A stretch of DNA of 64,000 nucleotides from Bacillota bacterium (GCA_050949055.1 JBMNFA010000001.1:543338-607337), one strand, 5' to 3'. Numbered from the stretch's first letter, positions 9,419-57,606 are shown. Notes: generated by a model not told the origin, from the sequence alone. Numbers and translations: made by a program.

Positions 9419-9715
9419 CTATTTGGCCATCTGCTGCTGTACCAGTTTCACCAATTCGGCGATGAAGTCGCCGATCACCGGCAAATTGAGAATTGCCAAC
9501 CTGCTCAAGAGCAGCAGCAGAATACCTGCCAGTAGTGTGCCCCCGACGGCGATTCCCACTCCACGGGCCAGGCCGGCCAAGAAGTTGAGCCACATCAGGC
9601 GCCAAGGTCGATTGAACAGCTGGATGTATTCCGCCAGCCGCATCCGCTCCAGATAATACGCCAATTCTTCCACCTTGCCGTCCAGCTTCTTCAGCGCGCG
9701 GTTCTTGTTGACCAT
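9419..9715 (-). CDS. DUF5665-type small membrane protein
   Basis: LERMRLAEYIQLFNRPWRLMWLNFLAGLARGVGIAVG...NLPVIGDFIAELV. RBS GGAAGGTG precedes MVNKN. Confidence 0.75.
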   Translation of the reverse strand: MVNKNRALKKLDGKVEELAYYLERMRLAEYIQLFNRPWRLMWLNFLAGLARGVGIAVGGTLLAGILLLLLSRLAILNLPVIGDFIAELVKLVQQQMAK

Positions 9716-9769
9716 CAGGATCACCTTCCGTTCATATTTGGTCTTGCCAAAATCGCTTGTTGTCATCCC

Positions 9770-9833
9770 CCCGGACATGGGGACGGTTCTTCTGTCCGGC
9801 GCGCCGGACAGAAGAACCGTCCCCATGTCCGGG
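9770..9833. repeat. Perfect 64-bp palindrome (REP-like doublet)
   Basis: CCCGGACATGGGGACGGTTCTTCTGTCCGGCG is followed directly by its exact reverse complement. Confidence 0.95.
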
Positions 9834-9904
9834 TCAAGCTGCGGAAAGCAAACAGCGGGGCTGGGGATTAGCTCCCCGCCCCGCTGCAATATATGACAAA
9901 CCTC

Positions 9905-10615
9905 TTAGGACGATGCCAGGGCCCGCTCAACCGCCGCTTTAGCCAGGAGCCCAGTGGAATCGAGCACCGGCACGCTGACATCGCCATCAGCCAGCACCAG
10001 CGGTATCTCGGTGCAGCCAGCGATAATGGCAGCCGCACCACGTGCGATCAGCCCGTTGGCGACCTGCTGGGCGCTAAGGCGCAGCTTCTGGTCCAACACG
10101 CCGGCCTTTACTCCTTCTGGTCCATAGATGATCTCCATCACTTGCGCCTGTGCTTCGGCATCAGGAACCATGGGCACCAGCCCCACTTTTTCTAATGCGT
10201 CGTGATACAGCCGGTTTTGCAGGGTACCGTCGGTAGCCATAATGCCGACCGCAGAACCGGGAGGCACCAATTTGGCAGCAACCTCCGCTACATTGTCGAT
10301 CATGCTCAAGAAGGGAATCCCCACAGCCGCCTCCACTGCCTTGGCAAAGAAGTGGGCCGTGTTGCAGGGGATGATCAGGAAGTCACATCCGGCTGCTTCC
10401 AGGCGCTTAGCCATGGCGATCAACTCGTCAGTCGGATCCACTCCCTTCCCCAAGAAAAAGGATGTGCGGTCCGGCACCTGGGGATTGTTGTCGATAATCA
10501 CGTGGACGTGGTCCTGATCCCGCTTGGCGGGGGTAGCGTCGATGATCTTTTGAAACAGGTCGCAGGTTGCTTGGGGACCCATTCCTCCTAGTACACCGAT
10601 GGTCAGTTTACTCAC
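9905..10615 (-). CDS. Aspartate/glutamate racemase family protein (two-Cys, PLP-independent)
   Basis: Motifs IGVLGGMGP, VPDRT, PCNTAH, AGCTEIP. Confidence 0.88.
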   Translation of the reverse strand: MSKLTIGVLGGMGPQATCDLFQKIIDATPAKRDQDHVHVIIDNNPQVPDRTSFFLGKGVDPTDELIAMAKRLEAAGCDFLIIPCNTAHFFAKAVEAAVGIPFLSMIDNVAEVAAKLVPPGSAVGIMATDGTLQNRLYHDALEKVGLVPMVPDAEAQAQVMEIIYGPEGVKAGVLDQKLRLSAQQVANGLIARGAAAIIAGCTEIPLVLADGDVSVPVLDSTGLLAKAAVERALASS

Positions 10616-10632
10616 TTGTTGTCCCTCCAAAT

Positions 10633-11112
10633 TTAAGCTAGCCTAGTGGGTGCAATCTCCAAGTTATCCCAAGCATCGTCGCCCAACATCTCCAGCTGCG
10701 CTTTCAGCATGCTGGTCAACCGGGCGCGGAAGACCTCCGCCTGTTTGCGCAAATCATCTACCTCCGAAGTCATGCGGCGGACTTTGGCAATAGCTTCATC
10801 CACCATGCGTTCTGCCTTTAACTCGGCCTCTTTGGTGATCAACTGCGCTTCCCGCTTGGCTGCCGCCTTGACTTCCTCGGCAGTCTCCTGGGCCACCACC
10901 AGTGCGTTATGCAGTGTCTGCTCCAACTCGTGGTAGTGCTCTAATCTGTCTGCCAGAGCAGTGCTCTTTTCTTTGTACTCGGCGTTTTCCCGCATCAGCT
11001 GTTCCATATCTTTGATCAGCTGATCCAGGAATTCATCCACTTCGTTGCGATCATAGCCACGCAAGGCGGTGCGAAACTCTTTGTTGTGAATGTCCAACGG
11101 AGTAATTGACAT
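10633..11112 (-). CDS. divIVA: Cell division protein DivIVA
   Basis: ITPLDIHNKEF...RGYDRNEVDEFLD followed by a coiled coil. Confidence 0.93.
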   Translation of the reverse strand: MSITPLDIHNKEFRTALRGYDRNEVDEFLDQLIKDMEQLMRENAEYKEKSTALADRLEHYHELEQTLHNALVVAQETAEEVKAAAKREAQLITKEAELKAERMVDEAIAKVRRMTSEVDDLRKQAEVFRARLTSMLKAQLEMLGDDAWDNLEIAPTRLA

Positions 11113-11131
11113 TTCGAGCCCTCCTCCAGAA

Positions 11132-11371
11132 TCAGATCAGCATCTGCAGATAGTAAAGTGCCAGCAGTACCATGATAGGAGCGATATCGACGGTGGTCTC
11201 CCCCAGGGTCATCGGTCCAACAAATCGTCGCATGGGAGCCAACACCGGCTCCGTAATTTGATGCACCAGCCTCCCCGCTGCCGAAGCGGCCACAGCAGGA
11301 ATGAAGTCAAACACCACTCTCAAAATAAACACCCACATTAAGACTTCAAGGACTGCTCTCAGTGGGCCCAT
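11132..11371 (-). CDS. ylmG: YggT/YlmG family membrane protein
   Basis: ITEPVLAPMRR...DIAPI; ylm operon position. Confidence 0.85.
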   Translation of the reverse strand: MGPLRAVLEVLMWVFILRVVFDFIPAVAASAAGRLVHQITEPVLAPMRRFVGPMTLGETTVDIAPIMVLLALYYLQMLI

Positions 11372-11374
11372 GGC

Positions 11375-11818
11375 CTATAGTCCCCCAGTTCTGCGAGACT
11401 TGCCTTCAGCCGCAATAGCGCTCAGTTCCTCGTCCAGAAGGTTGTTGATGTCCACATTTGCCGGGGCAAACAGGAAGATCAGCTCGCTTACCCGCTGGCT
11501 GCGCCCCCCCAAGGCGTAAATGGCCCCGCTGAGGAAATCTAAAACGCGCATGCGCGCTTTCGGGTCTGCCATCTCCAAGTTGACCACTACCGGTCGTTTT
11601 GCCCGCAGCTGGTCTGCCACCTGCTGCACGTCGTCATAGGACCTGGGGCCAAGCACAACCAGCTTCAGGTTCTTGTTCGGTTGCAGCTCCACCACATTGG
11701 GGCGAAAACGCGGGGCAGCCATCGGTGGCGCCGCTATATCCTCCTCTTGTGGCTCCTGGCTTTCATCCTCGACTTCCTCGAAGCCCAGCCAGTCCAGTAA
11801 TTTGCTCCAAAGCTTCAT
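11375..11818 (-). CDS. sepF: Cell division protein SepF
   Basis: PRSYDDVQQVAD, VVNLE, RVLDFLSGAIYALGG, IFLFAP. Confidence 0.93.
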   Translation of the reverse strand: MKLWSKLLDWLGFEEVEDESQEPQEEDIAAPPMAAPRFRPNVVELQPNKNLKLVVLGPRSYDDVQQVADQLRAKRPVVVNLEMADPKARMRVLDFLSGAIYALGGRSQRVSELIFLFAPANVDINNLLDEELSAIAAEGKSRRTGGL

Positions 11819-13861: not shown

Positions 13862-14683
13862 CTACAAATCCTGCCTCAGGAGAGGCTTTAGCCCGATAGT
13901 GGCAACCTGGCGTCCGGTAGTCCCACGGTCCCGTCGATAGGAGTAAAAACGGTCGGCATCATGCATGGTGCAGACTTGAGAGAGGTGAATGTGCTCAGGC
14001 TTTAGTCCTGCCGACTGCAGCAGCAAACGGTTGAGCAACGGCAGGTCCAGGTATTGCTGCCCGGCCACCATCGATTCCTTCACCGCCTGGACCCAAGGGA
14101 CGGGCAACCTCCTCACCTGGCTGAGCACAGGCTCGTCCACCAAGTAACAGCAACTGCCGATGCCCGGTCCAATACACGCCTCTATCTCTTCGGGAGCCGC
14201 ACCAAACTCCCTGACCATCAGCGCCACTGCCTGGGGAGCAATTTGAGCCACTGTGCCTCTCCATCCCGCATGCACAGCTCCCACTGCCCGGCAGCGGCGG
14301 GAAAGAAACAAAATTGGCAGACAGTCGGCGACCAGGACATGCAGAGCCAACCCGGGAGTATTGCTGACCACCCCATCGGTGGCCAGCAGGGTACCTGCAC
14401 CGGTGGCTACCGCCACCCGGCTGCCGTGGACTTGGTTCATATACACCTCTGTCCATCCGTCCATCCCCAGTGTCTGCAACCAAAGCTGGCGGTTCTGCCG
14501 CACATTCTGCTCAGCGTCCCCGCTGCCGCCCAGATTCAGACTGGACCAAGGCCCCTCACTGACACCCCCCAGACGGGTGGACCAGCCGTGAGTCAGCCAC
14601 GGCAGTCGCTCCCAGTCCGCGTGGACTAGCCAGGGTACGAGACCTTCACGGTAAGCTAAGCCACCAATTGCTTGCATACCCAT
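13862..14683 (-). CDS. pgeF: Purine nucleoside phosphorylase / peptidoglycan editing factor PgeF (YfiH/YlmD)
   Basis: STRLGGVS, NQVHGS, DGVV, VADCLPI, VHAGWRG, GPGIGSCCY, FYSYRR. Confidence 0.93.
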   Translation of the reverse strand: MGMQAIGGLAYREGLVPWLVHADWERLPWLTHGWSTRLGGVSEGPWSSLNLGGSGDAEQNVRQNRQLWLQTLGMDGWTEVYMNQVHGSRVAVATGAGTLLATDGVVSNTPGLALHVLVADCLPILFLSRRCRAVGAVHAGWRGTVAQIAPQAVALMVREFGAAPEEIEACIGPGIGSCCYLVDEPVLSQVRRLPVPWVQAVKESMVAGQQYLDLPLLNRLLLQSAGLKPEHIHLSQVCTMHDADRFYSYRRDRGTTGRQVATIGLKPLLRQDL

Positions 14684-14769: not shown

Positions 14770-16443
14770 TTAGTGCGACAGTGGAGCGGCGTAAACCACA
14801 TCAACCATCGGGCGCTCCGGCAGCGGTTGGACAACCAACTGCCCTCCCTGGAAATGCTGACTGACTGGTGCCAGTTGGTAGGGCTGCTCTACTTCCGGCC
14901 AGAGGCTGTTCACCAAAGGAAATGCCTGGCCGTCAACCTGCCTAAAGCGGCTAGCCGCCCAACTACCGGCAGTGGCAGCCAATTTCAACTGCAGAGCATA
15001 GTGGCTGCGCCAATGCTCCACGATGCGCCGCTGTAAGTGAATGAACTCCTGCTCCTCCAGCCCGATCTGGCTGCCAAAACGCATCCGCGCGACAGCAAAC
15101 GCCTCGGTCACGCCCACCGGGACGATACTCAGTTGACAAGCTTGCAGTACGTCCTTCATAGCCTGGTACTGCTGTTCACCGGCCCCCGCCAGCTGCCAGA
15201 GCAAGGGCAGATCATGCTCAGAGAGCGCCGAAAGAACCTCGAAGCGATGGGCCAGCTGCCGGGCCACCAAACTGTAGACGCGGTCGATTCCCGCCCAGAA
15301 ATCGCTGCTGCTTGACGCTTCCAGGGCGATCCGTGGTAGATTGACGAAACTCTGGGCCAGCTGCCCAGGCTCCCCCGTAGCCAAATGCAGTCCGCTGGCG
15401 AAGATGGCTCCTGACCTTTCACTGACCATAACTTGGGCAGGGTTGCCCCCTTCTCGCGCCACTGGCGCAGCTAGCTGCCTCAATTGCGCGGATACGGGGT
15501 CTGATGATCGCAGCTGCAAGACCACCTGGGGGGTGTGCGCCAGGGTGCGTCGGGGCAAGCCTCGGGCAAGTACGGCTAGCAGCGCCTTGGCAAAGATAGT
15601 TCCGCTGTTGCTCCGTTCCAAGCCTATACTGACCGAGACCCGAATCGGGCACAAACCGCCGATCTGAGCAACCAGGCCCAGGTCGTGTAACATGCGTTCT
15701 GCCAACAGTTCAGCCTCCACTGCTGAAAACGGCTGGTCGGCAAGTTTGACCACCTGCGCGACCGCGCAATCCAGGTCGGAGAACAGCAATTCGCCGATCA
15801 TCTCGCTATGGGCCAGCAGCACCAGTTGCCCGGCCATTCGCATCAGTTGCTCTGGAGTCCTGGCGGCCGCCAAATGCATTTGGCCTATGCTGATGCCATG
15901 CCGCACGAGGGTAGCCGGCCGGATTACGCCTGCCGCTACCGCCATGGTGTAGTGTGGCAAACGGTCTATATGTATTTCCGCCCGCTGGTGGGCCAAGGAG
16001 AACTCTCTGGGTAGCAGGCTGTGCAGCGTGTATTGCTCGCTGGCAGCCAAAGCAATCCGGCTCAGCTTGGCGGCCGGGGTGGACTGGTCGGAGAGCTCGT
16101 TGATGCTATCCTGCAGGACCTCGCTGACGGCATCCATCAACTCGCTTTTCTGTTCACGAATGCGCGTACGACGGTTGCGGTAAAGAATGTAGGCTTTGGC
16201 GGTACGGGCGTGGCCATTTTCAATCAGCACCTTTTCCACCAAGTCCTGAATCTGCTCCACTTGCGGCGTGCCGCCCTCGGGCAATGACTGACTCAACAAG
16301 TGGATCACCTGCCCGGCCAGGAACTCGGACTGCCGCCGATCCTCGCCGCCGACGGCTCTGGCAGCGGAGAAGATGGCATCTGCTATTTTGGCCGCGTTAA
16401 AGGGCACCACCCGGCCATCTCGCTTTTGCACCCACTCAATCAT
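14770..16443 (-). CDS. ATP-cone-containing degenerate class III RNR (NrdD-like) protein, predicted catalytically inactive
   Basis: Intact ATP-cone ([18 protein letters not shown]). Collinear with the NrdD at 53009 ([28 protein letters not shown]), but catalytic Cys positions are A/L and no CxxC or RITGY motif precedes the stop. Confidence 0.8.
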
Positions 16444-16897
16444 GCTTTTGCCCCAGCAACCTGTCCAGCTCCTGCTTCAATTGCATGATATCTGTGAACT
16501 GGCGATAGACTGAGGCAAAGCGCACGTAGGCGACCTCGTCTATTTCCCGCAAGCGATCCATCACCATCTCACCAATTTGCTCGGACTCCACCTCGGGACA
16601 AAGCTGATTTCGCAAGTGCTGTTCAATGTCATTGGCTATCTGCTCCAAAACAGCGGCGCTGACCGGCCGCTTCTCGCAGGCCCTAAATAGACCGGCCAGA
16701 ATTTTGTTGCGGTCAAAGGCCTCCCGCCGCCCATCCTTCTTGCTGACCATCATGGGCAGCTCTTCGATCTTCTCATAGGTGGTAAACCGTCGGGCGCAAG
16801 CAGCGCATTCGCGGCGGCGGCGAATAGCGTTACCCTCATCGGTGGGACGGCTATCGACTACGCGGCTATCAGGATGCGAACAAAAGGGACATCTCAT
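16436..16897 (-). CDS. nrdR: Transcriptional repressor NrdR
   Basis: MRCPFC...[21 protein letters not shown]-cone, [12 protein letters not shown]. Confidence 0.97.
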
Positions 16898-16957
16898 AGT
16901 TGCTACCCCTTTCTTCACCGCTGGTTGCACATCCGCAACCGGCAGCGGTGGGTATTC

Positions 16958-16985
16958 ATTATCAGTCTACAAGATATTGTGCCAA
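16958..16985 (-). promoter_or_regulatory. Putative nrdR promoter overlapped by an NrdR box (16967-16982)
   Basis: TTGGCA-16 bp-GATAAT, with GCACAATATCTTGTAG matching the NrdR consensus acaCwAtATaTwGtg. Confidence 0.6.
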
Positions 16986-17012
16986 GGTGCTAGTCTGGCC
17001 GCATCAGCAATG

Positions 17013-50725: not shown

Positions 50726-52021
50726 GTGAAAGCCAGTACCCGAATGCCTTTTGCTGTTCTCTGCGGGGTTCCTTTCGTGATGGTGCTTAGCAACAGCATG
50801 CTTATTCCCGCTCTACCCTTGATGCAGTCGGCCATGGGCCTTTCAGCCTTTCAAATTGGTTTGGTGGTCACCGCTTTCTCAGTCCCAGCTGGGCTGACCA
50901 TACCGATTGCAGGCTACCTTTCGGACCATTACGGCAGAAAGCCGATCATAGTGCCTGCGCTGGTCATCTTCGGAATCGGGGGTTTGTTGGCTGGAATAGC
51001 AAGCTGGCTGGTTTCCGCCCCATTCCTTTGGATTCTCGCGGCCCGAGTGCTACAGGGGATCGGCGGCGGAGGCACTTACCAACTGGCTATGGCCCTGACG
51101 GGAGACATTTTTCAAACTTCGGAACGCGCCAAGGCGCTGGGCTTGCTGGAGTCTGCCAACGGGCTGGGGAAGGTGGTCAGCCCGATTATTGGTTCATTGG
51201 CGGCCTTGATCATCTGGTTCGCTCCCTTCTTTATCTACCCTCTGTTGGCGATACCGGTGGCACTGGGAGTGTGGTGGGTGGTGAAAGAGCCCGACAAGCA
51301 GCTAAGCAAGCAATCTCTGGGGGACTACTTGGCCTCCGTTTGGCAGGTGTTGAAGAAGAACGCTGTTTCCCTAACCGCCGCCTTTCTGGCCGGCCTGCTG
51401 GCCCTGTTTATGCTGTTTGGAGTGCTCAGTTATCTGTCCGATGTGCTGGAAGAAGAACATGGCATCAAGGGGCTGACCAAAGGACTGGTCATTGCTATCC
51501 CGGTGCTGGCCATGGCAGTGACGTCCTATCTCAGCGGGCGATGGCTGCAAAAGCAAGGTGGCCAGGTGTGCAAGTGGGCGTCGATGGGCGGCATGCTGAT
51601 GATCGGCTTAGCGCTGCTCAGTCCGGTATTCCCATTGGGCCTGTACCTATTCATGGCGGCGGTGACTCTACAAGGGATCGGTACCGGCCTGGCGTTGCCA
51701 GCAGTCAATCTGTTGATCACCGGCGCAGCAGACCATGAAGAGCGAGGGATGATCACCTGCCTCTACGGGACGGTGCGATTCTTCGGGGCAGCCTTTGGCC
51801 CTCCCGTATTCGGGCTATTTGTCGCCAACAGCAAAATCCCCCTGTTTATCGTATCGGCTGTAGCCGTGGCTTTGGCCGGGGTGTTGGCCTTCACCTGCAT
51901 TAAAGCACCGCAGCTCAAGGCCGGCGATGGAGGCGACAATCAGGGGTCACCACGTTCTACCCACAGACTGAAACCGCGCACGACACCGGTCGGAAGGCGG
52001 AGCAAGGCACCGATCGGCTAG
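50726..52021 (+). CDS. MFS transporter (DHA1-like)
   Basis: About 12 TM segments; GYLSDHYGRK, RVLQGIGGG, ERAKALG. Confidence 0.9.
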   Translation: MKASTRMPFAVLCGVPFVMVLSNSMLIPALPLMQSAMGLSAFQIGLVVTAFSVPAGLTIPIAGYLSDHYGRKPIIVPALVIFGIGGLLAGIASWLVSAPFLWILAARVLQGIGGGGTYQLAMALTGDIFQTSERAKALGLLESANGLGKVVSPIIGSLAALIIWFAPFFIYPLLAIPVALGVWWVVKEPDKQLSKQSLGDYLASVWQVLKKNAVSLTAAFLAGLLALFMLFGVLSYLSDVLEEEHGIKGLTKGLVIAIPVLAMAVTSYLSGRWLQKQGGQVCKWASMGGMLMIGLALLSPVFPLGLYLFMAAVTLQGIGTGLALPAVNLLITGAADHEERGMITCLYGTVRFFGAAFGPPVFGLFVANSKIPLFIVSAVAVALAGVLAFTCIKAPQLKAGDGGDNQGSPRSTHRLKPRTTPVGRRSKAPIG

Positions 52022-52064
52022 CAGCAGCGCTCAGCTAGGCCTCCTTCATTGCCTTTGAAAGACA

Positions 52065-52093
52065 AGCTAGCAGGGGCCGTGGCGCCTGCTAGC
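52065..52093. terminator. Hairpin between the convergent MFS gene and the small ORF
   Basis: GCTAGCAGG...CCTGCTAGC. Confidence 0.6.
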
Positions 52094-52265
52094 TCTTCTT
52101 TCGTTCCAGATCCTTCAGGAAGCGGTTGATCTCTTCCATCAAGTTGGCCGCGCGGGCAAACTCCATCTCTCTGCCCCGCTGAAAAAAGCCTCTGGCTGCT
52201 CTTTGCATCGCCAATGACGATTGGCGCACCAGAATTCGCGGACTTCTAGTCACTCGTGCGCGCAT
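52089..52265 (-). CDS. Small hypothetical protein, 58 aa; absent from the ORF track
   Basis: My translation is MRARVTRSPRILVRQSSLAMQRAARGFFQRGREMEFARAANLMEEINRFLKDLERKKS. It has a strong RBS (AAGGGGGGAG) and ends at a terminator hairpin. Confidence 0.6.
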   Translation of the reverse strand: MRARVTRSPRILVRQSSLAMQRAARGFFQRGREMEFARAANLMEEINRFLKDLERKKS

Positions 52266-52388
52266 CGCTCTCCCCCCTTCATCACTCCAGCTGGCTGCTA
52301 TATTCTACTGAATCAACCGGTCAACTAGAACGGAAGGCACCAGCCGTCGGCAGCGGGTTAGTACTCTATCAACTGGTGTGCCAGGCCA

Positions 52389-52865
52389 TCACCTTGAGAA
52401 CAGATGACTCCAATCGGCTGGGCGCAGCAAGCGCTGGTTGCGCGAGCCCCGATATGGCAGTGCCAGGTCCCGTTCCTCCGCTAGGTAAGGGCCATCCACC
52501 AGCACATCTACTACACCTAGAATACGCTCAGATAAGGGATGCGCTGCCAGCTCCTGCAGGACGTAACCGGTATACAGCCAGACACTGTACCCTCGGGCTT
52601 TAGCTCCGGCTGCCAAGGCCAACGTGGCCTCTGCTTGCAGTAAGGGTTCCCCCCCGGAAATGGTCAGCCCGGAAAGCAAAGGATTGGACAGCAGGGTGTC
52701 GAGAACGTCATCCGTGTCAGCCAGATATCCTCCAGTCAACGAATGGGAGGCCGGGTTATGACACCCAGGACAAGCATGGGTGCACCCCTGCAAATACGCC
52801 ACCGCCCTCAGCCCCACTCCATCGGTCACACTCTCCGCATTCACCCCAGCCAAACGAACTTCCAT
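52389..52865 (-). CDS. nrdG: Anaerobic RNR activase (radical SAM)
   Basis: ESVTDGVGLR, QGCTHACPGCHN, ISGGEP, WLYTGY, DVLVDG, RGSRNQR. Confidence 0.95.
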   Translation of the reverse strand: MEVRLAGVNAESVTDGVGLRAVAYLQGCTHACPGCHNPASHSLTGGYLADTDDVLDTLLSNPLLSGLTISGGEPLLQAEATLALAAGAKARGYSVWLYTGYVLQELAAHPLSERILGVVDVLVDGPYLAEERDLALPYRGSRNQRLLRPADWSHLFSR

Positions 52866-52908
52866 GCAAAGCCCTTCCTTCCATTCTGCAATGTTGCCAC
52901 GAATTCCC

Positions 52909-52978
52909 TTGCACACGAACCACAGCACTGATACACTATATATCGCACCCTCAGAACGCAACCTCACTACATATTGTA
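52909..52978 (+). promoter_or_regulatory. nrdD promoter with tandem NrdR boxes
   Basis: TTGCAC-17-TACACT. Boxes TACACTATATATCGCA (52932-52947) and CTCACTACATATTGTA (52963-52978) start 31 bp apart. Confidence 0.8.
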
Positions 52979-53008
52979 CCAAAGTTCTAGAAAGCGGTGA
53001 AATAAACG

Positions 53009-55036
53009 GTGCCCGAAAACAAAGTAAGCTATACCGGAATCACCAAGCGGGATGGGCGACTGGTCAGTTTCGATGGAGAGAAGATCGTCAACGCGTTGAC
53101 AAAGGCATTGCTGGCCACAGGGGATGGAGATCGGGAGACTGCCAGACAGCTCTACCCTTTGGTGCTAATCAAGCTTGCCGACCTGACCAAAAAGCCAGCA
53201 CCTGACGTGGAAGAGGTGCAGGATGCTGCAGAGCAGGCACTGATGCAGGCTGGCTATCACCAAGCAGCCAGAGCCTATATCACTTACCGCAATCAACGCA
53301 CCGCCCATCGGGAAGGCAGGCAGGAACTGTTGCTGACCATGGAGCGGATCATGCGGGAGACCCACCGAGAAAACGCAAATGTAGGCAACTCTCCTTCGGC
53401 CAAGGGCCTGCAGATATTTGAAGCGGCCAGCGCCTACATGTGGGAGCGCAGAGGGCTGCCTGCCCACATCGCCCGTGCCCATCGGGAGAAGGACATTCAC
53501 ATTCACGATTTCGCCTGGTATGGCATGACATTAACCTGTGTCCAGACTGACCTCCGTCGCCTGTTGACAGAGGGGTTCAATCCCGGGCACGGCTATATCC
53601 GCCCGCCCAAGCGGATCAGCTCCGCCGCTGCGCTGGCAGCTATCATTCTGCAGGGTCTGCAGAACGACATGCACGGAGGGCAATCCTTCCCCAACTTCGA
53701 CCACGACTTGGGCCCCTTCGCCGAAAACACCGATGAGGACAGCGTCTATCAAGCGATGGAATCCCTGATCTTCAATCTCAACACGATGCACTCCCGCGCA
53801 GGGGCGCAGGTGCCTTTCAGCAGCCTCAACGTGGGCACTGGCACCTCCCGCGGCGCGCGTTTGGTTACTAAGCAACTGCTGTTGGCCTACAAGGCCGGCC
53901 TGGGCAGAGGAGAGCATCCTATTTTCCCTAACATTATCTTTAAAGTCAAGCGAGGGGTGAATTTCAACCCGCAAGACCCCAACTACGACCTCTACCGGCT
54001 GGCTTTGGAGGTGGCTTCCGTCCGACTCAACCCTTCATTTTCGTTCATGGACGCCCCGTTCAACTCCATTTATGAAGAAGAAGTGGCTTACATGGGCTGC
54101 CGCACAAGGGTAATCGCCAATGTCAACGGACCGGCAAAGACGACCGGGCGAGGCAACCTGTCTTTCACCAGCATCAACCTGCCCCGTCTGGCCTTGCGAG
54201 CTGCCGGGAATCAGGAACGATTTTTCCAACTGCTGGACGAAACGCTAGAGTTGACCATAGCACAACTGCTGCACCGCTATCGCATCCAGGCCAACCTGCT
54301 GGTCAGGGATATGCCATTTTTGATGGGTCAACACGTCTATCTGGATAGCGAGCACCTGAAAGCGGGCGATCGCATAGAGCCAGCCATCAAGCACGGCACG
54401 TTGAGCGTCGGTTTCATCGGCTTGGCCGAGGCACTGGTCGCCCTGACCGGCGCGCATCACGGTCAGCGGTCGGACGTATTCCAGTTGGGCAGGCAAATTG
54501 TCAGCCACATGCGCCTGCGGTGTGATCAGGCGGCGTCCGCCCACCAGTTGAACTTCACCCTGTTGGCGACCCCGGGAGAAGGTTTGTCCGGGAAGATGGT
54601 CGCACCGGACCGGGAACGCTTCGGGGTGATCCCCGGTGTGACCGACAAGGAATACTACACTAATTCTTTCCACATTCCGGTGGGCTGGAAGACCACCAGC
54701 AGCGACAAGCTGCGCCGTGAGGGGCCTTTTCATGAGCTGTGCAACGCTGGCCACATCTCCTATGTTGAGCTGGATGCCCCTCCTGGCCCCAATTGGCAGG
54801 CCACTGACAGCATCGTCAGGGCGATGGCGGCAGCGGGCATCGGCTATGGCGCGTTGAACTTTCCGGTGGACGAGTGCATCGCTTGTGGGCAGCACGGCAT
54901 CTTCGATCGGGCATGCCCCCATTGCGGCAGCGAGCACATCCGTCGCATCCGGCGCATCACCGGATACCTCTCCACAGTCGATCGCTTCAATGCCGGAAAA
55001 CTAGCTGAGCTGAGGGACCGCATCTCCCATCAATGA
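53009..55036 (+). CDS. nrdD: Anaerobic (class III) ribonucleoside-triphosphate reductase
   Basis: ATP-cone, IHIHD, TCVQ, MGCRT, INLPRLA, TNSFH, CIAC...CPHC, glycyl radical loop RITGYL. Confidence 0.97.
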   Translation: MPENKVSYTGITKRDGRLVSFDGEKIVNALTKALLATGDGDRETARQLYPLVLIKLADLTKKPAPDVEEVQDAAEQALMQAGYHQAARAYITYRNQRTAHREGRQELLLTMERIMRETHRENANVGNSPSAKGLQIFEAASAYMWERRGLPAHIARAHREKDIHIHDFAWYGMTLTCVQTDLRRLLTEGFNPGHGYIRPPKRISSAAALAAIILQGLQNDMHGGQSFPNFDHDLGPFAENTDEDSVYQAMESLIFNLNTMHSRAGAQVPFSSLNVGTGTSRGARLVTKQLLLAYKAGLGRGEHPIFPNIIFKVKRGVNFNPQDPNYDLYRLALEVASVRLNPSFSFMDAPFNSIYEEEVAYMGCRTRVIANVNGPAKTTGRGNLSFTSINLPRLALRAAGNQERFFQLLDETLELTIAQLLHRYRIQANLLVRDMPFLMGQHVYLDSEHLKAGDRIEPAIKHGTLSVGFIGLAEALVALTGAHHGQRSDVFQLGRQIVSHMRLRCDQAASAHQLNFTLLATPGEGLSGKMVAPDRERFGVIPGVTDKEYYTNSFHIPVGWKTTSSDKLRREGPFHELCNAGHISYVELDAPPGPNWQATDSIVRAMAAAGIGYGALNFPVDECIACGQHGIFDRACPHCGSEHIRRIRRITGYLSTVDRFNAGKLAELRDRISHQ

Positions 55037-55057
55037 ACACAAAGTCAATACCCGATC

Positions 55058-55088
55058 AAGAGGAGTCCGGAAAACGGACTCCTCTTTG
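55058..55088 (+). terminator. Terminator after nrdD
   Basis: AAGAGGAGTCCG-gaaaa-CGGACTCCTCTTT. Confidence 0.75.
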
Positions 55089-55283
55089 TGATCATGATCG
55101 CAGCAAAACCCCTGCTCATATCTGATACTGCTTGTTCATATAGTGACAGAGAAGCACTGCTGCTTGAACACACTAGGCTGCTGTCGGGCGCTCTGTTCCT
55201 TGCCCAACTAGTTCGCAAACTGTCAGTACTTTGAACGGCCTTGAACATAGCCCTAACAAGCCATCTGGCAAGGAGGATCTACA

Positions 55284-56219
55284 GTGTTGCTAAGCAAGAA
55301 GCGCTGGCTGTTACTGATGGTCATCTGTCTATTCGCTGCTAGCTATAGTATCACCTCGGCTGCTGCCCCTTTAAACTGTCTCTGCGAGGAGGATGACCGC
55401 ATCCTCAGGCTGACAAATCCGCTCACCACAGGCAGCGACGTGGAGGAGCTACAGTCCATACTCAGCGGACTAGGCTTCTATCGCGGTGAACTGAACGGAA
55501 CCTACGATCAAGAGACGGCCTCCGCAGTAGAGGCACTACAGGCGTTCGCTCAGCTGCCTGTCACCGGCACTTTCGGCCCGAAAGAGCAGGAAGCGTTGAC
55601 TATGTCCCTGGCCGAAAGCAGCCTGCAGCCGAGCACCCCCTCGCCTCCGGAAGGCGAGCTGCGTCTAGTCATCGACGTGAATGCCAAGACACTGACAGTG
55701 CTGGTCAACGATGTCGTCTTCAAAGTCTATCCCTGCGCGGTGGGAACCAGCAAGACCAAGTCTCCCGTCGGTGAATGGAGAGTGATCCAGAAGGGAACCC
55801 ATTGGGGCGGCGGCTTCGGAACCCGCTGGATGGGGCTAAACGTGCCCTGGGGCATCTATGGCATCCATGGGACCAACAAACCCAGCTCCATCGGCACGGC
55901 CGCCAGTCACGGGTGCATCCGCATGCATAACCGGGATGTGGAGCAGCTTTACCCCTGGGTAAAGATCGGCACCAAGGTGTCCATCGTCGGACCGTTCCCC
56001 AGAGTGAAAGTGAACAGACCCTTGGGCCTGGGACTCTCCGGACACGAGGTGCAGACACTGCAGCTGGTGCTGCGGGAAGCCGGCTTCAACCCAGGGTCAA
56101 CCGACGGACGCTATGGCCCCGATACCGCAGAGGCTATCAGAGCTCTGCAGGAGTTCTATGGGCTACGCCCCACCGGGCAAGCCGACTGGAACGTATTGAC
56201 CATTCTAGGTTTACGCTAG
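55284..56219 (+). CDS. L,D-transpeptidase (YkuD) with two peptidoglycan-binding domains
   Basis: Signal peptide, PG_binding_1-like repeats (GSDVEELQ..L, DGRYGPDT), YGIHGTN...SHGCIRM. Confidence 0.9.
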   Translation: MLLSKKRWLLLMVICLFAASYSITSAAAPLNCLCEEDDRILRLTNPLTTGSDVEELQSILSGLGFYRGELNGTYDQETASAVEALQAFAQLPVTGTFGPKEQEALTMSLAESSLQPSTPSPPEGELRLVIDVNAKTLTVLVNDVVFKVYPCAVGTSKTKSPVGEWRVIQKGTHWGGGFGTRWMGLNVPWGIYGIHGTNKPSSIGTAASHGCIRMHNRDVEQLYPWVKIGTKVSIVGPFPRVKVNRPLGLGLSGHEVQTLQLVLREAGFNPGSTDGRYGPDTAEAIRALQEFYGLRPTGQADWNVLTILGLR

Positions 56220-56232
56220 GGGGAATTGCAGT

Positions 56233-57606
56233 ATGGCCAAGAAACGGAGAATCAAGCGGCGGAGACCACTCCTTTGGATCGCTATCCTGGCATGCCTGGC
56301 GATCGCCTTATCAGCTCTCAGTCCCCATCTGCTGCAATTGCTGTCCAAAGGGCAGTTTCGCTTCAACCACAGGGCAAAGCTGCAGGCCGACGAGACCTAT
56401 CAGCTGGAGTTCTGGGTGGAACGTCCGAACATACCTGACATTGCCCCTTGGCAAGCCGGCTTGCAGCAAGCCATCGACGAGTTCCGCACTGTCTATCCCA
56501 ACGTCGAGGTGTCGTTGGTCCACCTCTCCCCTCAGGATGTGGATCAGCGGATGAACGATGCGCTTAACCAGGGCACTCCGCCAGACCTGTTCTTCAGCGC
56601 TAATCAGCCGTGCGGTAATCTGGGTGAGCTGCAGCTACCCCTGCATCGCTACATAGACAAGACAGAGCGATTGGCCTGGCCGGACTCAATGTGGCAACAG
56701 CTGCAACGCAGTGACGGTGTGTACGCACTGCCAGTAGCCGCCTACCCGAGGGTGTTCATGGCTAATAGCCAGCTGCTGGCGGATAAGGGGCTGGAAGCCG
56801 ATGCATTCGGCGAAGGGGAATGGAACTGGCCGGCACTGTTGGCCCTGGCTGAAAAGTTGACCGCAGGTCAAGTGGTGGGCTACCTACCCACTTCCACCGG
56901 CCAGTCACTGCTCACCAGCTTGGCGGCTAGCATCGGTAAACCCTCGCCCTTTGATAACGATGGAGAGTTGGCCTGGACCAAAGAGGATTTGGTCAACTTA
57001 GCGGAGATCTGGCTGCGTCTGATGGGATCGGCCGGCGCGCCTAAGGGTGGCGGCAACATGGACAGCAATTGTCTGGACCTATTCCTCAGCAAGCGAGCGG
57101 CAATGATTGGGCCACTCAATCATCAGTTGACCGCCTGGTTATGGCAAGCAGCCGACAAGAGAGGGATCGTACCTCAGCTAATGGCCATCCCCGCCGCGGG
57201 ACCGGAACCTTATGCAGACGTGCGGGTTTTGGGCATCGCGTTGCTCCGACAGCAGGACTATCAAGGCGACCGGCATACCCGGGCCGCCGCCGAGTTGGCC
57301 CAGTTTCTAGTGCCGCGCTTAGGCGGTCTGCTTGCCTCACTTACCGGAGCACTGCCCGCTGTGGCACCAGCCTCTGCCGCCACCTGGCTCCCTTACGACG
57401 AAGAATCGTTTGCCATCTACTCTCAGATAGAAAACATTCCGCGCTGCTCATACGCCTATGGCCCACCTAAAGGGCTGTCGGTCACCCATTGGCAACTGGG
57501 CATCGCCCCTGCCTGGGATAGACTGGTGCAGGGACAGTACACAGCGGAGCAGTTTGCCGAAGCTGTGTTGGCCGAGTTAGCCATGGCCACCATAGCTGGA
57601 CCATAG
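56233..57606 (+). CDS. Membrane-anchored extracellular solute-binding protein (sugar-ABC type), orphan
   Basis: Basic N-terminus plus TM segment; PDLFF, YALPV, NSQLL..GL, WNWPALL. No permease or ATPase nearby. Confidence 0.7.
   Translation: MAKKRRIKRRRPLLWIAILACLAIALSALSPHLLQLLSKGQFRFNHRAKLQADETYQLEFWVERPNIPDIAPWQAGLQQAIDEFRTVYPNVEVSLVHLSPQDVDQRMNDALNQGTPPDLFFSANQPCGNLGELQLPLHRYIDKTERLAWPDSMWQQLQRSDGVYALPVAAYPRVFMANSQLLADKGLEADAFGEGEWNWPALLALAEKLTAGQVVGYLPTSTGQSLLTSLAASIGKPSPFDNDGELAWTKEDLVNLAEIWLRLMGSAGAPKGGGNMDSNCLDLFLSKRAAMIGPLNHQLTAWLWQAADKRGIVPQLMAIPAAGPEPYADVRVLGIALLRQQDYQGDRHTRAAAELAQFLVPRLGGLLASLTGALPAVAPASAATWLPYDEESFAIYSQIENIPRCSYAYGPPKGLSVTHWQLGIAPAWDRLVQGQYTAEQFAEAVLAELAMATIAGP

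Follow-up and report, generated by a model that had tools for sequence, protein, structure and literature searches.

Yeast Rnr4 is a catalytically dead class I small subunit of ribonucleotide reductase (RNR) that pairs with Rnr2 in a proven heterodimer, and the betaherpesvirus R1 homologues (M45, UL45) have kept the RNR fold, lost catalysis and retained a non-catalytic role, acting on host signalling. A dead paralogue of the class III reductase NrdD, here called dead NrdD, is encoded directly behind nrdR in a 64,000-nucleotide stretch of DNA from a Bacillota bacterium (GCA_050949055.1 JBMNFA010000001.1:543338-607337; this whole stretch is the window below). Like Rnr4, which was kept as the partner of a live subunit, it is an RNR-family paralogue without catalytic residues, but it belongs to another subunit type, class and kingdom, and for dead NrdD a heterodimer is hypothetical. 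With the R1 homologues it shares a retained fold of the RNR large-subunit type and the loss of catalysis; those proteins, however, are viral and class I, do not sense through an ATP-cone and are unconnected with NrdR.

Two closer relatives are the canonical cone-bearing NrdDs (P. copri, PcNrdD, 8P23; S. thermophilus, 9D3X) and NrdR itself. Canonical NrdD has the same domain order (ATP-cone, linker, ten-stranded barrel), the same fold (Foldseek 1.0) and the same ATP/dATP ligands, and dead NrdD descends directly from an nrdR-linked nrdD. It lacks, however, the NxN flap, the HxHD motif, both cysteines, Asn435, Glu581, a conserved specificity site and an adjacent NrdG, and in the window copy the Zn ribbon and glycyl-radical loop are missing too. 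Constraint is inverted as well, the cone being far more constrained than the barrel. NrdR and dead NrdD both carry the ATP-cone sensing module, and their genes share an operon, the end of nrdR overlapping the start of dead nrdD. Unlike NrdR, dead NrdD has no N-terminal DNA-binding Zn ribbon and has a large barrel, and it carries a cone of the NrdD type, with only about 32% identity to that of NrdR across 68 residues.

The ATP-cone is regarded as a domain that occurs essentially only in RNR subunits and in NrdR (PMC11226230). Searches of the full-text literature, coverage of which is incomplete, yielded no account of an NrdD that is catalytically dead or otherwise non-catalytic, and none of a protein that partners NrdR, although this is not proof of absence. 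Public records label the proteins of the dead NrdD clade either 'hypothetical' or 'anaerobic ribonucleoside-triphosphate reductase'.

Domains, lost motifs and selection

The dead nrdD gene and its parts are as follows.

14770..16443, minus strand: dead NrdD paralogue, 557 amino acids, ATG start; ATP-cone, then a degenerate class III RNR barrel, no glycyl-radical tail
16165..16443, minus strand: ATP-cone, residues 1-93 (Pfam, ligand mapping and invariance in 22 orthologues)
16105..16164, minus strand: linker helix, residues 94-113, conserved nearly to the level of the cone
15931..15933, minus strand: Ala171, at the position of the first-strand catalytic cysteine (PcNrdD Cys171), by alignment
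15382..15399, minus strand: degenerate finger loop A349-S-G-L-H-L354, with Gly351 at the position of the radical cysteine (PcNrdD Cys416), by alignment

An initial annotation, made from the sequence alone, had read the gene as a 557-codon open reading frame that overlaps the nrdR stop by 8 bp and aligns along its length with the intact NrdD at 53009. Both observations hold: the overlap lies at 16436-16443, and BLASTP gives 25% identity with the intact protein (53009-55036) over residues 5-511 (E = 1e-35). The profile and structural comparisons with NrdD proposed there gave a consistent picture. Pfam assigns residues 5-93 to the ATP-cone (PF03477, 80.9 bits against a cutoff of 25.8) and finds a weak NRDD match in residues 117-511 (94 bits), and all NCBIfam NrdD equivalogs score far under their cutoffs, the best reaching 189.5 bits against 764. 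An AlphaFold2 model built on 22 orthologues had a predicted local distance difference test (pLDDT) score of 83.8. Its top Foldseek matches in the PDB were class III RNRs only (S. thermophilus 9D3X, P. copri 8P2x, T4 1H7x and T. maritima 4COx), each with probability 1.0 and with template modelling (TM) scores of about 0.6. The likeness to NrdD is therefore far beyond chance, and the model indicates that the ten-stranded alpha/beta barrel of the RNR/glycyl-radical enzyme family has been kept.

A search of 5.8 billion proteins yielded a dead clade of 22 clusters (557-611 amino acids, 44-61% identity to the window protein, 420-655 bits), below which the scores fall to canonical NrdDs at about 36% identity. 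All 22 clusters are free of frameshifts and stops. Among the GTDB species representatives, five metagenome-assembled genomes (MAGs) of uncultured Bacillota carry the clade.

Catalytic motifs were defined from the PcNrdD structure paper (PMC11226230) and mapped via alignments. In the window protein their state is as follows (PcNrdD numbering).

NxN flap (substrate contact): deleted
HxHD motif (triphosphate binding; HIHD in canonical NrdDs): HIDR
Cys171: Ala171
Radical Cys416: Gly351, in the loop FASGLH that replaces YMGCRT
Asn435: Gln
Glu581: Ser
Zn ribbon and Gly711-Tyr712 loop: absent

The losses in the barrel are common to all members of the dead clade, in which position 171 is Ala or Ser and the finger-loop tip is Gly throughout. 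Most orthologues retain two C-terminal CxxC pairs and a G-Y-L loop, unlike the window copy, from which the entire tail is gone; in P0018 the Zn cysteines have been lost. No remnant of a Zn ribbon or Gly loop was recognisable, in any frame, in the 85 nucleotides past the stop at 14770. No nrdG adjoins dead nrdD at any dead copy, whereas the sister operons have one. A retained specificity site was also considered and is unsupported, the Asn298 equivalent and loop 2 being variable.

The substitutions first noticed by eye, MTLTCVQ to MAVAAGV and YMGCRT to ASGLHL, are thus real by alignment, and the reported lack of a CxxC Zn site or RITGY loop ahead of the stop is borne out. The same annotation had cautioned that some class III RNRs, such as that of Thermotoga maritima, place their cysteines atypically. 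This does not apply, as TmNrdD keeps the loop cysteine and the glycyl-radical domain and dead NrdD has neither. Relocated cysteines of the Thermotoga type were rejected, and activity cannot be rescued in this way, because no conserved cysteine was found across the orthologue clade outside the Zn ribbon, which the window protein is itself without; none of the mapped cysteines could stand in for those lost. As far as can be read from the sequence, radical chemistry and nucleoside triphosphate (NTP) binding in the barrel are excluded.

The ATP-cone shows the opposite pattern. In P. copri NrdD the ATP/dATP ligands are Lys7, Arg8, Tyr83, Arg87 and Arg91, with roof residues Asp9 and Arg11. These map to K7, R8, Y88, R92 and R96 of dead NrdD, with roof residues D9 and R11, and all seven are invariant in the 22 orthologues. 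Y88, the Tyr83 equivalent, marks the cone as one of the type predicted to bind two nucleotides, and the domain looks fully competent for nucleotide binding. The cone has a mean pairwise identity of 86% within the dead clade, followed by the linker helix at 83% (K99-E108 being invariant) and the first core helices (126-165) at 77%; the remaining core falls to 39-53% and the tail to 32%. Invariant residues number 73 in the first 108 and 56 in the remaining 449. Some of them are newly arisen in the clade: E214, E218, W478, W515 and the GNPS and GGQ motifs.

The ratio of non-synonymous to synonymous substitution rates (dN/dS, or omega) was obtained from two orthologue pairs with unsaturated synonymous sites, pairs more than about 25% diverged being saturated and unusable.

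L001-L089: dS 0.61; dN/dS overall 0.117, ATP-cone 0.031, barrel 0.139, tail 0.130
L090-L091: dS 0.55; dN/dS overall 0.107, ATP-cone 0.021, barrel 0.126, tail 0.064

Neighbouring genes in the same pairs are constrained to a similar degree as dead nrdD (spoIIR 0.08-0.11, pgeF 0.117), and nrdR gives 0.015-0.07. In the canonical NrdDs of sister lineages the barrel has a dN/dS of 0.02-0.06 and the cone is no better conserved than the barrel; one 'canonical' comparison pair at 0.10 turned out to be degenerate too. Set against the neighbours and the canonical NrdDs, these values indicate that the barrel of dead NrdD is relaxed about three-fold yet clearly still selected, and that the ATP-cone is now its most constrained part.

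One feature of the second pair was noted separately. Around L090/L091 (the P0015 and P0016 loci) the flanks, namely ftsZ, spoIIGA and sigE on one side and the HlyD-like gene, ylmE, sepF and divIVA on the other, are near-identical (dS about 0-0.015), and the block sigG-spoIIR-ylmC-nrdR-dead nrdD has a dS of 0.3-0.67, a contrast that suggests recombination of this segment or a chimeric assembly.

Dead NrdD is, then, an enzyme homologue that has lost its catalytic residues and is under purifying selection, that is, a pseudoenzyme; the 22 clusters have unbroken frames and their dN/dS is 0.11, not about 1 as for a pseudogene. That the gene is both catalytically dead and selected is almost certain. 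The initial annotation had proposed a catalytically dead NrdD paralogue with an intact, well conserved ATP-cone, coupled to nrdR and selected for retention, and each part of this is supported: the death by motif loss, the cone by its 80.9 bits, invariant ligands and dN/dS of 0.02-0.03, the coupling by synteny, all 22 orthologue clusters being syntenic, and the retention by the overall dN/dS of 0.11.

The nrdR operon, the live reductase and the origin of the dead gene

The genes and sites around dead nrdD are listed here.

16436..16897, minus strand: nrdR, 153 amino acids, Zn ribbon then ATP-cone, intact (Pfam; TIGR00244 214.9 bits against a cutoff of 124.65)
16436..16443, minus strand: nrdR/dead nrdD overlap ATGATTGA, 8 nucleotides, with the dead nrdD start codon inside the nrdR end
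13862..14682, minus strand: pgeF/ylmD (Cu-oxidase_4), 85 nucleotides downstream of dead nrdD, no terminator detected
16958..16985, minus strand: sigma-70-like promoter TTGGCA-16-GATAAT upstream of nrdR, a consensus match only
16968..16981, minus strand: the one NrdR box still present, CACAATATCTTGTA on the minus strand; its former partner in the ancestral pair has been lost

The nrdR open reading frame spans 16436..16930 (minus strand), with the real start, MRCPFC, at 16897. In ten clade loci, the window included, the order is ftsA-ftsZ-spoIIGA-sigE-sigG-spoIIR-ylmC-nrdR-[dead nrdD]-(pgeF)-HlyD-like-ylmE-sepF-yggT-divIVA. In all clade loci examined the start of dead nrdD overlaps the nrdR stop by 4-8 nucleotides and nrdG is absent, and the overlap suggests translational coupling. 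NrdR is intact in all clade loci; the cone-only protein of 103 amino acids annotated in L002, L003, L090 and L092 results from miscalled start codons, a full Zn ribbon lying behind GTG/TTG starts. No riboswitch, other RNA element or intra-operon terminator was found at the operon, and pgeF is probably on the same transcript as dead nrdD. The P0007/8/15/16 subclade (L002, L003, L090, L091, L092) has no pgeF (ylmD) at the locus, and the HlyD-like gene follows dead nrdD directly.

NrdR boxes were searched for with the pattern CACWANATNTWGTG, two boxes 31-32 nucleotides apart being taken to define the regulon. Sister operons have two boxes 31 nucleotides apart with 1-3 mismatches in total. The best pair upstream of the window nrdR has 6 mismatches in total, against 1-4 at the sister operons and live nrdD promoters; none of 2600 shuffled sequences scored 4 mismatches or fewer. 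Dead operons have at most one NrdR box, none being left in five of the ten clade loci, and the dead nrdD operon in the window thus lies outside the NrdR regulon as defined by paired boxes. Its surviving box overlaps the TTGGCA-16-GATAAT promoter-like site. Across the clade a motif, TAGTAGACTA, is kept upstream of nrdR just ahead of the -10 element (window 16940-17000), and the right half of the former NrdR box has contributed part of it.

A second, complete nrdD-nrdG pair lies elsewhere in the window.

53009..55036, plus strand: live canonical NrdD, 675 amino acids, all catalytic motifs (NF005497 949 bits against a cutoff of 764)
52389..52868, minus strand: NrdG activase, divergent from live nrdD
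52934..52978, plus strand: paired NrdR boxes (52934-52947 and 52965-52978), 31 nucleotides apart, between nrdG and live nrdD

A live NrdD-NrdG pair with NrdR boxes therefore coexists with the dead copy. Dead and live NrdD were directly confirmed to occur together in three genomes of the clade, that of the window and two others: contig JAKOXL010000024.1 carries the two genes about 38 kb from each other, an arrangement like that of the window, and the MAG GCA_023436245.1 has them on two contigs. The live loci L093 and L095 also have paired NrdR boxes. Live NrdD orthologues form a clade of their own (75-89% identity), and the dead copies diverge faster: between the window and the P0003/P0123 genome the dead proteins are 59% identical and the live ones 82%. 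The surroundings of live nrdG/nrdD are conserved in the clade (window 50726-57606; L093, L095), with a major facilitator superfamily (MFS) transporter upstream and a YkuD/peptidoglycan-binding L,D-transpeptidase and a solute-binding protein downstream.

The canonical NrdDs closest to the dead clade (P0038; P0084, from a Dethiobacteraceae MAG; P0053) are encoded at the same locus, in the order ylmC-nrdR-nrdD(674-697 amino acids)-nrdG-pgeF-HlyD-like. As sister lineages hold a working nrdR-nrdD-nrdG operon in this place, the dead gene arose there from such an operon, losing nrdG and the box pair. In neighbour-joining trees the dead and the live clade are each monophyletic in 100/100 bootstraps and sisters in 0/100, and live NrdD groups with other Bacillota and Chloroflexi NrdDs. 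An origin of the dead gene as a recent duplicate of live nrdD was accordingly rejected, the two never being sisters and the live protein nesting among other NrdDs. The separation of the dead from the live clade fits a takeover of catalysis by a second nrdDG pair.

The window clade is not alone. An exhaustive profile search of 1.84 billion cluster representatives ranked about 15 further families (260-430 bits) higher than the canonical NrdDs (215-255 bits). Nearly all are degenerate: the NxN flap and Cys171 are gone in every case, Cys416 in most, and the tail in several. The best 80 GTDB loci included eight more dead or degenerate copies (L039, L043, L064 and L073, of which the last two are from Dethiobacter MAGs, L082, L085 and L016/L027) and about 60 fully canonical ones. 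The other dead copies occupy the same sigG-ylmC slot, and neither nrdG nor an NrdR box pair was found at them. In the Dethiobacter-type dead lineage omega is about 0.1 and the cone is again the more constrained. In the tree, every dead lineage joins the syntenic NrdD subgroup. Since L085 and L016/27 nest inside this subgroup on short branches, at least three inactivation events are indicated; the large long-branch dead assemblage could reflect one event or an artefact.

The NrdD-like proteins P0232, P0238, P0253 and L016/L027 are intermediate forms: they keep the loop cysteine, Zn ribbon and G-Y/G-W loop (G-R in L016/L027), but the NxN flap, the cysteine of the first strand and part of HxHD are gone. 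At L013 (about 9664-11652; near P0025) an nrdR-linked NrdD has all active-site motifs except Glu581, which is Lys, with the Zn ribbon and Gly loop absent, no nrdG nearby and one good NrdR box; this may be an early stage of inactivation or an assembly frameshift. P0236, P0237 and other NrdD-like proteins of 1100-1400 amino acids match the profile in three separate stretches and may contain inteins or be fusions.

Candidate function and competing explanations

The history suggested by these data is that, once a second nrdD-nrdG pair supplied catalysis, the resident nrdD lost nrdG, the paired NrdR operator and all radical-chemistry and substrate-binding residues and became a pseudoenzyme. Purifying selection still acts on what it has kept: a folded barrel with its first core helices, the linker helix and the ATP-cone, which is predicted to accommodate two nucleotides. 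Dead NrdD would then most likely act as an adenine-nucleotide (ATP/dATP) sensor through its cone, passing the signal to the RNR system. Made with NrdR from one mRNA, it may partner NrdR by cone-to-cone contacts, and would thereby shift the nucleotide threshold at which NrdR represses live nrdDG.

From a protein that is dead but selected, a competent-looking cone, its co-encoding with an intact NrdR and the presence of a live, box-bearing nrdDG, we infer nucleotide binding, a regulatory role and a partnership with NrdR. A regulator driven by the ATP-cone is reasonably probable, and the whole explanation (pseudoenzyme, nucleotide sensor and NrdR partner) is just on the probable side. NrdR as the partner is proposed more tentatively, as a possibility on the less probable side. 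It is preferred because the overlap is conserved across the clade and because cone-to-cone contacts are the general basis of oligomerisation in RNRs and NrdR (PMC9110341).

A number of points weigh against this explanation. A barrel of 450 amino acids under selection exceeds the needs of a partner that contacts NrdR only through the cone. Close nrdR-nrdD spacing is ancestral, making adjacency alone weak evidence, and nrdR linkage is not obligatory: nrdR adjoins the dead copy in L073 and L082 and does not in L039, L043, L064 and L085. The specificity-site residues and loop 2 of dead NrdD are not conserved, and coexistence with live NrdD was directly verified in only two genomes besides the window.

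The first of these points would be met if dead NrdD were the permanently inactive half of a heterodimer with live NrdD or, in the tail-bearing orthologues, a titrator of NrdG, since either would explain the retention of the whole barrel and, in most members, of the Zn-ribbon/G-Y tail. The whole barrel is selected (omega 0.13), the first core helices (126-165) are 77% conserved with many residues common to canonical NrdDs, and a live NrdD is present in every genome checked (the window and two others). The P. copri NrdD dimer, moreover, pairs an active with an inactive monomer, and the two communicate, in half-of-sites fashion (PMC11226230). The tail, where present, is constrained (omega 0.06-0.13). 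However, dead and live NrdD come from different sub-lineages and share only 25% identity, and the helix region is closer to the ancestral syntenic type than to the live partner. The specificity site and loop 2 are degenerate, and the tail has been lost in the window copy and in most other dead lineages, as have the Zn cysteines in P0018. This explanation is considered unlikely, though it is the strongest of the alternatives.

The location of the gene, between the ftsAZ-sigE-sigG-spoIIR-ylmC genes and sepF-divIVA, had led the initial annotation to suggest that it might tune dNTP supply during sporulation, and a role outside RNR altogether, in division or sporulation, can be imagined on the same grounds. 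The synteny is invariant in all dead lineages and, as no box pair remains, the dead genes have left the NrdR regulon. But working nrdR-nrdD-nrdG operons fill the same slot in sister lineages, so that the position is inherited and carries no independent information, and the promoter looks to be of the housekeeping type. The sporulation role is thus unsupported, and the wider division or sporulation reading is improbable.

More improbable still is that dead NrdD remains an enzyme, either a reductase with relocated residues or a barrel enzyme with new chemistry. The new clade-invariant residues (E214, E218, W478, W515, GNPS, GGQ) might suggest it, as might the loop cysteine and glycine kept in some related families (P0232, P0238). 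Against this, there is no conserved cysteine, the window protein has no glycyl-radical domain, the motifs that bind triphosphate and base are gone, and no activase gene is adjacent.

A functionless pseudogene in slow decay would account for the progressive loss of the tail and for evolution faster than that of the live copy (45-61% against 75-89% identity across the clade), but can practically be dismissed given 22 diverged clusters without a frameshift or stop, an omega of 0.11 that equals that of functional neighbours, a cone 86% identical across the clade and independent dead lineages that are also maintained.

The presence of a dead copy beside a live reductase in the same genome, with its cone under purifying selection, makes it most likely that dead NrdD is an RNR-derived pseudoenzyme and ATP-cone sensor, an undescribed kind of nucleotide-sensing regulator. 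More doubtful is the broader proposal that dead NrdDs with hyper-conserved cones are widespread, repeatedly arisen RNR regulators in anaerobic Bacillota, in which nucleotide-dependent hetero-oligomers with NrdR or live NrdD would set the ATP/dATP threshold.

The finding has a practical consequence in that the automatic label 'anaerobic ribonucleoside-triphosphate reductase' is wrong for the dead genes, which matters wherever RNR repertoires are deduced from MAGs. For the RNR family, it would add a third setting for the ATP-cone: a full-length dead RNR apparently kept for its cone, coupled to nrdR and standing beside a live enzyme that appears to be under NrdR control. That one locus has reached the same outcome at least three times argues that NrdD has a non-catalytic function on which selection can act. 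If the proposed hetero-oligomer with NrdR is real, dead NrdD would be the first known protein partner of NrdR.

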